Below are positions 18,265 through 49,949 of a stretch of DNA of 64,000 bases, piece by piece. Each line of letters begins with the position of its first letter. Positions within the stretch are counted from its first letter, which is position 1. The stretch is from Escherichia coli. Lineage in GTDB: Bacteria; Pseudomonadota; Gammaproteobacteria; Enterobacterales; Enterobacteriaceae. Both the position numbers and the translations under genes were made by a program. The notes beneath the pieces are model-generated. The model was not told where the DNA came from. It ran no database searches and worked only from the letters and a program-made list of their open reading frames with translations. The stretch is from NCBI RefSeq assembly GCF_029227855.1, contig NZ_CP074356.1; one strand, written 5' to 3'.

Positions 18265-18348
18265 TCAGGAAAGATAAAAACGGGCGGCAATCAGTGCGCA
18301 TAAAATAAGGATGATAAGAATGAACTCAAAGCGATAACGGCCCACCAT
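18265..18348 (-). CDS. ydgU: small membrane protein YdgU (27 aa)
   Basis: Hand-translated minus-strand ORF MVGRYRFEFILIILILCALIAARFYLS; too short for the ORF track. Confidence 0.6.
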   Translation of the reverse strand: MVGRYRFEFILIILILCALIAARFYLS

Positions 18349-42165: not shown

Positions 42166-42223
42166 AAAAACGGCGGCAGAGCAGTCACGGAGTAAAACTG
42201 ATACCGCTAAACGTCACCAGAAA
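42166..42223 (-). ncRNA. dicF: DicF small RNA
   Basis: Reverse complement reads TTTCTGGTGACGTTTAGCGGTATCAGTTTTACTCCGTGACTGCTCTGCCGCCGTTTTT, matching the DicF sequence I recall, including terminator stem and U-tail; lies between the ydfC-like ORF and dicB. Confidence 0.85.
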
Positions 42224-46587: not shown

Positions 46588-47184
46588 ATGGTTGGTGTTA
46601 CTCAAAGGTCAGGGAATTACTCACGTAATGTGCAGGTGGTTGTCGATTCTAACTCTGTTGATATTATAAAGTCTCCATCGATTTTTATGGATCTTGTTGG
46701 TATTTTAGTTGATTCGAATGTTATTGATCCTCGTACAAACAATGACTACGAGCCATATGATATTGAGAATAAAATAGACTTCAATGATGTTATAAAACAT
46801 AGAGAACGTATTGAAGGGTTCTATCTATATTCTTCGATGATAGATAAAGCGTATGAAACATTAAATGAAAGTATGCCTACTGCTAAGGAAACGGCACTGA
46901 AAAGCATCAATTCACGATATCTTGATTGTCAAGGAGATTTATTGCTTAAACATAGAGAAGCGTATAAGAGCTGCAAGGATGCTCAGGAACGGAATAATTT
47001 AAAGATTCAATTGGTAAGAGAGTTTGCAGATTGGATAATAGACAGTGTAATAGAGCACATCATTAAGAAATGCTTAAATTCTCTTATGGCAATGAATTAC
47101 ACAAGCGAAGAAATCGAATGCCATGCTTCTTTTATCGTTTATCATGCATTCGTAGAGTGTAAGATTCTGGAAAAACCAATATGA
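46588..47184 (+). CDS. hypothetical protein (198 aa), second gene of the AT-rich cassette
   Basis: ATG 46588 with GAGG SD; stop overlaps the next start (ATGA); no motif I recognise. Confidence 0.65.
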   Translation: MVGVTQRSGNYSRNVQVVVDSNSVDIIKSPSIFMDLVGILVDSNVIDPRTNNDYEPYDIENKIDFNDVIKHRERIEGFYLYSSMIDKAYETLNESMPTAKETALKSINSRYLDCQGDLLLKHREAYKSCKDAQERNNLKIQLVREFADWIIDSVIEHIIKKCLNSLMAMNYTSEEIECHASFIVYHAFVECKILEKPI

Positions 47185-47417
47185 TTATCTCTGATGTAAC
47201 AAAACCAAGCCAAACCTTGTATTACCTGGGAGCTCGGTTATTAGAATGCATGAGTTCAAATGCTTATTCGTATGTTGATATTATAGACTTGTATAATGAA
47301 TTCAAATCTAAAAATAACAACTCTTCATTCACGCAATATATTTACACTTTAAATTGGCTATATTTATTAGGCCTGGTTGATGCTAACGAAAATGGAGATT
47401 TGATATTATGTTTTTGA
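47181..47417 (+). CDS. hypothetical small protein (78 aa), third gene of the AT-rich cassette
   Basis: ATG 47181 overlapping the upstream stop; 3' end overlaps the ATPase start by 10 nt. Confidence 0.6.
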   Translation: MIISDVTKPSQTLYYLGARLLECMSSNAYSYVDIIDLYNEFKSKNNNSSFTQYIYTLNWLYLLGLVDANENGDLILCF

Positions 47418-49132
47418 AACGGCTAATAGTCAGTTCTTTCAGGCTTGGAGTGATTCGTGATATCGAATTTCACATTGGCGTTAATTTGATTATTGACCGA
47501 AACACCTCCAGCAAAGAGCAAACTGGAAATGGTGTGGGAAAAACTACTGTATTAAGAGCTTTAGATTTTTGTTTTGGAGCAGAACAACTGAATTTTTATA
47601 CCGATCCTGAATTCAAGAAAGAAAATTCGGTTATAAAAAATTATTTGATAGAGAACGAGATTGAGTTTTGTTTAATTCTCACAAAAGATTTGAATAATAA
47701 AACTGCACCAGTAATAAAAATTAAGCGTAAAATTACATCTGAGACTAATAAAACGAAGGTTATAGCCTCAATAAATGAAGAGTCCTATACGAAGGCTAAA
47801 GATTTCAACGAGGCTTTAAAAAGAACATTATATCTTGATTCCGCGATAAAACCGACCATACGAGAGATTATGGGACGTGTTATTCGAAATACGCATGACA
47901 AGATGTCGAACGCATTAAAAACGATAAAAATGGGTTCTAATACACAATATGAAACGTTAAATCTGTTTATGTTTGGGTTCGGTAACTCACAGATTCTGGA
48001 TGAAAAACAGTCAGTGACTAAAGCCTATAAACTGGCGAAATCCGATTATGAAGTAATTACTCGCCATCGCTCAAAGAATGCTTTGGAACAAGCTATTGCA
48101 ATTATAAATAGAGATATTATAGCACAAGAAGAGTTAATTTCTAATTTTCAAGTGGCAGACTCTTATAATGATATGCTTGCTGAGTTAAATGAGTTAAAAA
48201 TTAAAATTAGTGAAGTTTCTATCACACTATCATCTTTGGAGTTTAAGCAAAAATTAAACGATAAGGCTATACTAGATCTGGAAAAAAGTCATGAAAATAT
48301 AAATACACTAGATCTACAGAAGTTGTACTTAGAAGCAACTGATCGGTTAGGTAACTTAAACAAAGAGTTTACTGAGCTACTTTCGTTTCATAATAAAATG
48401 CTTGTAAAAAAAGCTGAGTTTATTAGAAAACAAATGCAGCCAGTGCTGCAAGAAATTTCCAAATATAAAGATGAACTAAATAATTTATTGACTCAAGAAT
48501 CAGAGCTTTTAAAGAGTTTGTCTTCGCATGGGACATTGGCAGACCTGCAAATAATGCAAAAAAAATTAAATTCATTATTTGAAGAAAAAGGTGGGCTTGA
48601 AGCTGGACTACTTCAAATCCAAGAGATGGAGAACAACTTTAATATACTGAAAGCAAAGTTTAATGATGTGTCAGATAGATTAAAATCTAAACTTGACGAT
48701 TTTAACAAACGTCTTGCGCTATTCAATTCCTATTTTTCTTTATATACTAAAAAATTATATCAGGATGAATATATTCTTTCCTATAAAGATTCCTCCGGTT
48801 CTTTCGTTTTTACCATTGAACCTTTAGGAACTTTGCTCACATCAGGTAATCAGGGAGAAGGAAAAAAGAAAGCCCAGGTTGCCTCTTTAGATTTTGCCTA
48901 TTTATCTGTCCAGGAGTCTTTAGAAGCCAGAACACCACGTTTTATAGCTCATGATGGAATTGAGGCAATTCATGTAAATCAAATAAATAAGTTATTCGAG
49001 ATAGCTTCGGGGATTAATGGTCAATATATATTGGCTATTCTTAAAGACAAGTTGGAGAATATTGATCAAGACTTCATCAATAATAGTGTTGTGCTTGAGC
49101 TTGGGGAGGACGATAAGTTTTTTAGGCTTTAA
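47408..49132 (+). CDS. SMC/Rad50/ABC-type coiled-coil ATPase (574 aa), fourth gene of the AT-rich cassette
   Basis: N-terminal P-loop TGNGVGKTTVLRALDFCFG (RecF/SMC-type Walker A); ~300-aa heptad-rich central region; C-terminal TSGNQGEG (signature-like) followed by RFIAHDGIEAIH (Walker-B/D-loop-like); GGAG SD. Confidence 0.8.
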   Translation: MFLKRLIVSSFRLGVIRDIEFHIGVNLIIDRNTSSKEQTGNGVGKTTVLRALDFCFGAEQLNFYTDPEFKKENSVIKNYLIENEIEFCLILTKDLNNKTAPVIKIKRKITSETNKTKVIASINEESYTKAKDFNEALKRTLYLDSAIKPTIREIMGRVIRNTHDKMSNALKTIKMGSNTQYETLNLFMFGFGNSQILDEKQSVTKAYKLAKSDYEVITRHRSKNALEQAIAIINRDIIAQEELISNFQVADSYNDMLAELNELKIKISEVSITLSSLEFKQKLNDKAILDLEKSHENINTLDLQKLYLEATDRLGNLNKEFTELLSFHNKMLVKKAEFIRKQMQPVLQEISKYKDELNNLLTQESELLKSLSSHGTLADLQIMQKKLNSLFEEKGGLEAGLLQIQEMENNFNILKAKFNDVSDRLKSKLDDFNKRLALFNSYFSLYTKKLYQDEYILSYKDSSGSFVFTIEPLGTLLTSGNQGEGKKKAQVASLDFAYLSVQESLEARTPRFIAHDGIEAIHVNQINKLFEIASGINGQYILAILKDKLENIDQDFINNSVVLELGEDDKFFRL

Positions 49133-49279
49133 GATTTGTAATTTGATAGATATGTAGATATCATTTTTCTCGCTCAAAACTGACAGTCAGATTTGAGCGA
49201 ATTGCTTATGTAAGTATTTCGCAGAATCATGCCATTTATATTTATTAGAACATACGTACTTTAAATGTGGGAGGCTGTC

Positions 49280-49366
49280 ATGTTGGTTCTTAAATGTTCG
49301 CTGACTATTGCGGTGGTGCGGGTAATTTATTGTTCTGTTATTCTTATGGATCGCCTTTCTGACTGA
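49280..49366 (+). CDS. possible 28-aa hydrophobic peptide
   Basis: ATG 49280 preceded by GGGAGG at spacing 6; MLVLKCSLTIAVVRVIYCSVILMDRLSD; could be coincidental. Confidence 0.25.
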   Translation: MLVLKCSLTIAVVRVIYCSVILMDRLSD

Positions 49367-49577
49367 TTTCATATTGGCGAGATAACGGGAGTTAAGTAGA
49401 ATGCCTGCGGGTGCTTGAGGCTATCTGCCTCGGGCATGAACACCAACGGCAGATAGAGAAAAGCCCCAGTTAACATTACGCGTCCTGCAAGACGCTTAAC
49501 ATTAATCTGAGGCCAATTTCATGCTAGACACATGTAGGTTAGCCTCTTACGTGCCGAAAGGCAAGGAGAAGCAGGCT

Positions 49578-49733
49578 ATGAAGCAGCAAAAGGCGATGTT
49601 AATCGCCCTGATCGTCATCTGTTTAACCGTCATAGTGACGGCACTGGTAACGAGGAAAGACCTCTGCGAGGTACGAATCCGAACCGGCCAGACGGAGGTC
49701 GCTGTCTTCACAGCTTACGAACCTGAGGAGTAA
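49578..49733 (+). CDS. hokD: Hok/Gef-family membrane toxin HokD (51 aa)
   Basis: ATG 49578 preceded by AAGGAGAAG; MKQQKAMLIALIVICLTVIVTALVTRKDLCEVRIRTGQTEVAVFTAYEPEE; ORF track shows an in-frame upstream extension from 49521. Confidence 0.86.
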   Translation: MKQQKAMLIALIVICLTVIVTALVTRKDLCEVRIRTGQTEVAVFTAYEPEE

Positions 49734-49740
49734 GAGACCC

Positions 49741-49830
49741 GGCGAGGGAGAAATCCCTCGCCACCTCTGATGTGACAGGCATCCTCAACGCACCCGCACT
49801 TAACCCGCTTCGGCGTGTTTTTGTTTTTAT
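49741..49830 (+). terminator. stem-loops and T-run downstream of hokD (putative 3' fold-back/terminator region)
   Basis: Hairpin ggcgaggga-gaaa-tccctcgcc at 49741-49762, then cgcttcggcg followed by tgtttttgtttttatttt. Confidence 0.4.
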
Positions 49831-49949
49831 TTTCAACGCGTTTGAAGTTCTGGACGGTGCCGGAATAGAATCAAAAATACTTAAGTAGCGCGCAGGGATA
49901 AGAGGGATGTTCCCTTAAAGGGGAGAGCTAATTATCCGGAAGGATTCTG

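Follow-up and report, generated by a model that had tools for sequence, protein, structure and literature searches.

A probable micro-gene for a predicted small membrane protein upstream of hokD in lambdoid prophages of Escherichia coli

A short, probably coding frame upstream of hokD

The stretch of DNA analyzed here (the window) comprises 64,000 nucleotides of the Escherichia coli contig NZ_CP074356.1 and includes, upstream of the gene hokD in a Qin-like lambdoid prophage, a 28-codon open reading frame (ORF), which we consider quite likely, judging from the sequences of its homologs, to be a genuine protein-coding micro-gene. It belongs to an unnamed family of peptides of 28-31 amino acids (aa) with a single predicted helix, of which the window carries a divergent allele. 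The pattern of substitutions among the family members indicates that the peptide is under purifying selection, and modeling suggests that the product is most likely a single-pass small protein of the inner membrane. The micro-gene would constitute a tiny module in the nin region of Qin-like lambdoid prophages, placed between a slot of interchangeable cargo and the hokD/mok/sok locus, and our working guess is that its product would be an accessory, "moron"-like membrane peptide, expressed in the lysogen and acting independently of Hok. The micro-gene and its translation signal are located as follows:

49269-49274, plus strand: Shine-Dalgarno (SD) sequence GGGAGG, 5 nt 5' of the start codon
49280-49366, plus strand: coding sequence (CDS) of the micro-gene, 28 sense codons followed by TGA (49364-49366); product MLVLKCSLTIAVVRVIYCSVILMDRLSD

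A preliminary description of this region had reported GGGAGG in front of ATG 49280 and an ORF of 28 codons, and both are borne out by the sequence, with the spacer CTGTC, 5 nt long, between the SD and the start codon (49280-49282). Translation would start at ATG 49280 from this strong SD, which is located in a loop left unpaired by structure prediction (z = -1.37 for the fold of the window's sequence). The program-made list of ORFs gives a 33-aa version that begins five codons earlier, at the in-frame ATG 49265; we rejected this start, which overlaps the SD and has no SD of its own, while the homologs begin at the position of 49280. Still longer in-frame versions (37-165 aa) proposed by gene finders require the loss of one upstream TGA, which has occurred in few alleles, and their start is not conserved.

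By itself, the pairing of an SD with ATG is at chance level: the window contains 8 sites of the form GGAGG-N4-8-ATG, against 9.2 +/- 2.9 in shuffled sequences. The combination of an SD, at least 28 codons and a grand average of hydropathy (GRAVY) of at least 1.4 is found once in the window, against a mean of 0.00 in 100 mononucleotide shuffles. When the same filter is relaxed to 20-40 codons, it also recovers a 27-aa gene, which served as its positive control. This hydrophobic ORF, MVGRYRFEFILIILILCALIAARFYLS, is preceded by a GGAGG SD, occupies 18265-18348 of the minus strand between asr and ydgD, and is annotated in RefSeq as a hypothetical protein; we take this interval to be the site of ydgU, a gene for a small membrane protein. 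Here and below, RefSeq annotation was taken from NZ_AP021933.1 (E. coli WP2-W18-ESBL-08), which is identical to the window.

Signs of selection in the reading frame

The frame is intact in the deeply diverged alleles (loci L172-L178 and L181), which start with ATG or GTG at the same position and carry an SD of the form (A/G/T)GGAG(G/A) 5 nt upstream. In nearly all homologs the SD reads (A/G)GGAGG; weaker versions are GGGGG, found in the L110 type, and GGAGA, found in L174 and L175. The indels found inside the ORF, namely -3 in the window, +3 in L175 and +6 in L176, are all multiples of three. Between the window and L002, codons 1-21 are 73% identical with a single 3-nt gap, against 56% identity and 10 gap positions in the 56 nt upstream of the start.

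The substitutions follow the same frame. Among 12 diverse alleles, the variable sites at codon positions 1, 2 and 3 number 15, 14 and 24, respectively (third versus first plus second, Fisher p = 0.0035), and the summed NG86 ratio of nonsynonymous to synonymous differences (pN/pS) is 0.41 in the proposed frame; the two remaining frames of the plus strand give 0.77 and 0.78, and those of the minus strand 0.63-0.73. Values of omega for the deepest pairs of alleles are 0.09-0.19 (0.09 for L002 versus L177), and L175 contains a synonymous double change of a leucine codon, CTT to TTG. Within the group of common alleles, 11 synonymous and 12 conservative nonsynonymous changes have accumulated (binomial p = 0.02 against the 26% synonymous expected). 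The preliminary description had allowed for a chance ORF and had named the conservation of the frame among homologous loci as a test that could refute a coding role. The frame passes this test strongly, and the conservation of frame, start and SD, the variation at third positions, pN/pS and the indel lengths together lead us to reject the notion of a chance ORF.

We also considered and rejected a structured RNA or small RNA (sRNA) in place of a protein. Searches of Rfam returned no match at E <= 1 for the micro-gene region of L002 and, for the same region of the window, matches no better than chance, the alifold consensus of the region is weak (-11.4 kcal/mol, 2 compensatory pairs), and the z-score given above is not significant. 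A "terminator-like" hairpin in the ORF of L002 is not kept in the window allele, has many G-U or broken pairs, and was set aside as fortuitous.

Predicted product

The Kyte-Doolittle profile, averaged over 19 residues, peaks at 1.94 in the window allele and at 2.58 in the common allele. With the family alignment as input, AlphaFold2 predicts one helix spanning residues 2-29 (pLDDT 91.5). In the numbering of the 30-aa allele (alignment A6), Ile11, Ile17 and Tyr18 are invariant, and Lys6, Cys19, Leu20, Ser29 and Asp30 are nearly so. The product would consist of a hydrophobic helix (approximately residues 2-24) with an invariant I-Y-C core, followed by MDRLSD as a short, charged tail at the C-terminus. 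It is predicted to be a small hydrophobic membrane peptide with one helix, and the composition of a small membrane peptide, noticed from the window alone, is upheld by the hydropathy maximum and by the one-helix fold of the family.

Distribution of the family

Among the 5426 complete E. coli genomes searched, 1669 contain the 111-nt ORF region, in most cases with approximately 80% identity; the carriers include E. coli B REL606 (NC_012967.1, complement 1619975-1620064) and E. coli C. The family also occurs in four sequenced lambdoid phages (mEp460_ev081, Evi, Tritos and HannyBb) and in plasmid records, 124 from Shigella and 17 from E. coli. When 49100-49900 was compared by megablast, homology to many other hokD loci started at 49270, at the SD, while K-12 matched only from 49564, and the ORF is absent from it. 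Two pattern scans of IMG/VR, one for the 5' end and one for the 3' end of the ORF, yielded approximately 125 usable loci. The full frame is found in 62 of the 71 loci retrieved with the 3' pattern, and in all those retrieved with the 5' pattern, apart from truncations at contig ends and one loss of the stop codon that adds 2 aa. A degenerate version of the 5'-end pattern, searched in genome contigs, gave 25 matches in unrelated phyla, none of them in Enterobacteriaceae, which we regard as chance; these loci (L075-L099) were left out of all analyses.

A profile search of 1.84 billion representative proteins returned 15 matches, all of them belonging to this family and several representing artificially extended ORF calls; in their sources the members are named "hypothetical protein", "membrane protein" or "conserved hypothetical protein [E. 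coli B str. REL606]". Searches of Pfam, NCBIfam, PHROGs and PADLOC with the family gave only sub-threshold matches typical of hydrophobic helices, and literature searches for hokD with small protein, for the peptide string, for mokD/sokD and for icsP with hok found no relevant paper. One member of metagenomic origin retains an intact frame, MLIIKGVLAIVIVVAIYCLVVTLWERLSD.

The copy on the Shigella plasmid pCP301 (219920-220009; L178 1622-1711) is intact, begins with ATG, encodes MLVLKGTLAIAAVMTIYCLIVVLMERFSD, and is unannotated there. It lies approximately 260 nt upstream of icsP/sopA on this virulence plasmid. In the record of phage HannyBb (PP925841.1; L179 2423-2712), two CDS on the minus strand, both labeled "hypothetical protein", cover the micro-gene and the hok promoter. 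The micro-gene of L173 has lost its stop codon through a deletion of 11 nt, which extends the frame by six codons across the hok -35 element and gives a product of 35 aa.

The boundary with the hok unit

The relationship of the micro-gene to hok can be judged from the following features of the window:

49374-49402, plus strand: hokD promoter-like site, -35 TTGGCG (49374-49379), 17-nt spacer, -10 TAGAAT (49397-49402); from a consensus scan, also found in L002
49409-49583, plus strand: 5' leader of the hok mRNA (tac end, mok start, Sok target), matching Rfam RF01794
49578-49733, plus strand: hokD CDS, 51 aa (RefSeq WP_000813254.1 in the identical genome)

The stop codon of the ORF is found 7 nt before the hok -35 element, 42 nt before hok +1 (49409) and 211 nt before the hokD ATG, and of this 211-nt gap only 49409-49577 belongs to the hok leader. 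Since the ORF ends at 49366, ahead of both the promoter-like site and the leader, it is situated outside the hok mRNA rather than inside that transcript between its tac end and the fbi element. The arrangement is rigid where both units are present: the spacing from stop to -35 is constant at 7 nt in 103 loci, and hok follows approximately 300 nt downstream of the ORF in 100 of the 114 loci with enough downstream sequence.

Nonetheless, the micro-gene and hok are separable, as each occurs without the other. In the L110 type (at least 11 loci), the ORF is directly followed by unrelated DNA in a nin region that lacks hok, and in L181 no hok leader is found in the 145 nt available downstream of the ORF. 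On pCP301, the intact ORF stands beside the hok promoter and a degenerate hok leader that is truncated before icsP. Natural knock-outs of hok next to an intact ORF are provided by L073 and L029, where unrelated DNA begins at the hok start codon, and by L128, where the start codon is ATA. This separability argues against a hok-dependent role of the peptide and against the view that its conservation merely reflects that of the hok promoter. The ORF does not belong to the hok transcript unit: it ends 5' of the hok promoter, and the two units are genetically separable. Paralogy with Hok, in the form of a truncated tandem copy of hok, was likewise rejected: BLASTP produced no alignment between the micro-gene product and HokD at E <= 100, and there is no Pfam match.

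Promoter-like signals and the divergent allele of the window

Approximately 45 nt before the start codon, L002, L172, L173, L174, L177, L178 and L007 share the footprint TTGAnn-17-CATATT(TATCAG), in which the 17 nt vary in sequence and which has 8 of 12 consensus matches, below the threshold of our promoter scan, and whose sequence is the pattern expected of a sigma-70 promoter. In most alleles, this promoter-like footprint would drive the micro-gene, with a leader of approximately 35 nt. The corresponding signals of the window are:

49136-49164, plus strand: promoter-like site TTGTAA-17-TATCAT, 9 of 12 matches in the consensus scan, just 3' of the stop codon of the DUF2326 gene
49237-49248, plus strand: -10-like block TATATTTATTAG, the window's version of the family-invariant CATATTTATCAG, from the alignment of the deeply diverged alleles

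The window allele keeps TATATT (49237-49242), has a spacer shorter by 8 nt, and is missing the TTGAnn -35 of the family. It probably depends on transcription from upstream, and either the site at 49136-49164 or read-through from the upstream cassette would have to supply its transcript. The promoter scan itself is weak, with 5 sites in the region (49136-49164 among them) against 2.6 expected. In neither the window nor the L002 allele does a predicted terminator separate the ORF from hok, so the micro-gene transcript probably reads into hok.

The window allele is mosaic in structure: its first 21 codons share 73% identity with the common type, and identity is 94-100% from 49343 onwards. It differs from the common allele by Ser7, Thr9, Val12, Arg14, Val15, Ser19 and a one-codon deletion, and occurs in only 26-27 genomes, always together with the DUF2326 cassette.

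Several observations speak against a functional micro-gene, in the window in particular. The gene is dispensable, as K-12 and many hokD loci do without the ORF. Nine of the 71 viral-contig loci retrieved with the 3' pattern keep only the last 7 codons, the remainder being unrelated DNA. The last 8 codons may owe their extreme conservation to hitch-hiking with the region of the hok promoter, and, as many loci hardly differ in sequence, the number of independent substitutions is modest. RefSeq has no annotation at the ORF in this genome, and most other records leave it unannotated as well. The window allele is the odd one out, being 64% identical to the common allele; Arg14, Ser7, Thr9 and Ser19 fall within its hydrophobic stretch, it has no recognizable -35, and its omega is approximately 0.6 versus L002 and L175, but 0.19 versus L177. 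It may be under relaxed constraint. On the other hand, it may represent a functional divergent allele that travels with the ABC-three-component (ABC-3C) cassette.

Alternative interpretations

An unlikely alternative is that the peptide, instead of being a free-standing accessory protein, is a functional partner of its flanking neighborhood, either as a membrane co-factor or modulator of HokD encoded on a 5'-extended hok transcript, or as a phage-exclusion or defense effector that marks the right edge of the cargo slot. If this were true, the retention of the micro-gene upstream of icsP on Shigella virulence plasmids would also be functional. If, in turn, the peptide is unrelated to Hok, it represents one more small membrane protein, a useful if unsurprising addition.

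We find it quite unlikely that the ORF is incidental and that the DNA owes its conservation to a noncoding role, either in front of the hok promoter or as a "linker" whose homology would serve the recombinational exchange of cargo cassettes. In agreement with such a scenario, recombination joints are found on both sides of the ORF and within it, the ORF directly abuts the hok -35, and alleles that have diverged elsewhere share 94% identity over the last 8 codons of the ORF and the hok promoter. However, a linker would not explain why third codon positions are the most variable and pN/pS has its minimum in precisely this frame, why indels are multiples of three inside the ORF and not upstream of it, or why the ORF, with its SD and start position, is conserved where hok is absent and beside decayed hok.

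The small size and the single hydrophobic helix of the peptide, together with its location in a spot rich in toxin and defense genes beside hokD, are reminiscent of type I toxins, and the micro-gene could encode a second membrane toxin in addition to Hok, controlled by an as yet unrecognized RNA antitoxin. We consider this improbable. Consensus scans revealed no promoter-like site on the minus strand over the ORF or its leader in the window or L002, and there is no Rfam match. Instead of a long structured leader that hides the SD, as in type I toxins, the micro-gene has a strong unpaired SD and the weak folds described above; its product shows no similarity to Hok or to any listed toxin model.

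It is very improbable that the ORF acts in cis as an upstream ORF (uORF), whose translation on read-through transcripts modulates the expression of hokD/mok or the folding of the hok mRNA. The fixed adjacency of the two units and the lack of a predicted terminator between them would suit such a role, but a uORF that serves as a spacer does not need a conserved amino-acid sequence, and the ORF is also maintained at loci whose hok is missing, disrupted or decayed. Moreover, its stop codon, 42 nt upstream of the first structural element of hok, is out of reach of a terminating ribosome, and no conserved structure spans the junction, whereas the ORF of a leader peptide overlaps or abuts the RNA structure that it controls.

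Finally, the notion that the real gene is the 61-aa ORF on the opposite strand (49187-49372, minus), in line with the choice made by the annotators of HannyBb and with the open antisense frame in the window, is hardly credible: this frame is interrupted by stops in L116 and L177, its pN/pS (0.63) exceeds that of the plus-strand frame, its extent is set by non-conserved upstream DNA, and it lacks an SD.

Comparison with known small membrane proteins

The micro-gene may be compared with several known systems. YdgU, YohP and YnhF are examples of small single-pass inner-membrane proteins of E. coli. The micro-gene product resembles this class in its length (approximately 27-31 aa), in its single hydrophobic helix that has a short charged end, in its strong SD and in the usual absence of annotation; it differs in being borne on prophages and plasmids, in being absent from K-12, and in having no detectable relationship to other families, and the literature searches turned up no report of its experimental detection. 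With Hok/Gef (PF01848; RF01794) it shares the membrane helix, and the micro-gene adjoins hokD and is probably present on transcripts that read into hok. However, it is located outside the hok mRNA, occurs independently of hok, and encodes a peptide that has no similarity to Hok and lacks its periplasmic domain. Type I toxins such as TisB, ShoB, DinQ, ZorO, Ibs and Ldr are 18-35 aa long; the micro-gene product matches them in length, hydrophobic helix and toxin- and defense-rich gene neighborhood, while scans, folds and Rfam searches revealed no antitoxin RNA, occluded SD or long structured leader for the micro-gene. "Morons", i.e. accessory genes with their own promoter, are known from the nin region of lambdoid phages, and the micro-gene, like them, is small and autonomous, bears a promoter-like footprint, stands between conserved modules of the phage, is patchily present among otherwise similar prophages and has mosaic edges; it is far smaller than a typical moron, and a terminator of its own was not detected.

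Small membrane proteins are systematically under-annotated, and the present family, found in about a third of complete E. coli genomes, has neither a name nor a family entry nor a paper despite its presence in E. coli B, E. coli C and the Shigella invasion plasmid. Its occurrence in these standard hosts (including Shigella pINV) makes the predictions readily testable. For annotation, the gap upstream of hokD should not be regarded as empty, and in at least one phage record the wrong strand has been called there. The micro-gene also forms the fixed right-hand border, set against the hokD promoter, of a slot in which defense and toxin-antitoxin (TA) cassettes are swapped.

Organization of the hokD locus

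Downstream of the micro-gene, three further elements of the hok unit were recognized:

49521-49733, plus strand: mok-type overlapping frame of 70 aa, from the ORF list, ending at the hokD stop codon
49536-49564, minus strand: putative Sok promoter, weak TTGCCT-17-TAACCT, below the scan threshold, placed by analogy
49778-49795, plus strand: 3' fold-back (fbi-type) element, from the minimum free energy (MFE) fold, pairing with the 5' end of the hok mRNA

The covariance model RF01794 matches the leader over its full length (model positions 1-157) with 115.3 bits (gathering score 59, E = 3e-27) and ends at the hok AUG. In the MFE fold of the hok mRNA (49409-49806; -159.5 kcal/mol, z = -6.95), GGGUGC at 49409-49414 pairs with GCACCC at 49790-49795, and this predicted 5'-3' pairing is the fold-back expected of hok mRNAs. 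The segment 49409-49806 combines three hallmarks of hok/mok/sok loci, namely the covariance model match, the overlapping mok frame and the long-range pairing of its ends. GC-rich stems with a possible role in Hok-type folding had been suggested for the whole interval between the ORF and hokD; from 49409 onwards this is supported by RF01794 and the z-score of the fold, but it does not hold between the ORF and 49409. Gene callers report 70-aa HOK_GEF products at homologous loci. The position of the putative Sok promoter presumably corresponds to that of the sok promoter of plasmid R1, which served as the guide. RF01794, although labeled "sok antitoxin", matches the hok-sense plus strand, so that automatic annotation would put "Sok" on the wrong strand.

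Downstream of the ORF, RefSeq annotates hokD, rem, ydfU and a Q antiterminator, and the DicF sRNA at 42171-42222 of the minus strand (RF00039, 64.8 bits) confirms that the element is a Qin-like lambdoid prophage.

The cargo slot upstream of the micro-gene

On the left, the window's slot ends with one gene next to the micro-gene:

47408-49132, plus strand: DUF2326 gene, the last gene of the ABC-3C cassette that fills the variable cargo slot

The slot, bounded by the replication/DUF977 genes and by the micro-gene/hokD, was compared between the window (46588-49132) and L002, L003 and L172-L176. Its cargo includes the ABC-3C cassette, a restriction endonuclease, a SIR2 protein, DUF4145, QueH with a methyltransferase, HigBA and ORF6N, and the slot behaves as a prophage hotspot for defense and TA genes. 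We take relBE of K-12 to be cargo of the same left-hand slot. The ORF of the common type follows a conserved block 110-190 nt long, to the left of which the DNA varies between loci; in the deeply diverged alleles, all that is left of this block is the promoter-like footprint described above.

Between the DUF2326 stop codon and the micro-gene, 3' of the promoter-like site at 49136-49164, the window contains a near-perfect palindrome of 31 nt (49170-49200), with arms of 15 nt, TCGCTCAAAACTGAC and GTCAGATTTGAGCGA, separated by 1 nt; it folds with -16.6 kcal/mol (z = -4.2) on either strand. As no U-tract follows it on either strand, it is not a canonical terminator, and it could be an operator or an RNA-stabilizing hairpin. 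In L002 (2826-2849) and approximately 100 related loci, a hairpin of the form (G/T)TCCGCT-nnTCGCTCAA-AGCGGA is found approximately 190-205 nt upstream of the micro-gene start, at the transition from the variable cargo to the left edge of the conserved block; it may mark the junction of cargo exchange. The variation in its left arm is largely C-to-T, which would preserve G-U pairs, and the core TCGCTCAAA is common to this hairpin and the palindrome of the window.

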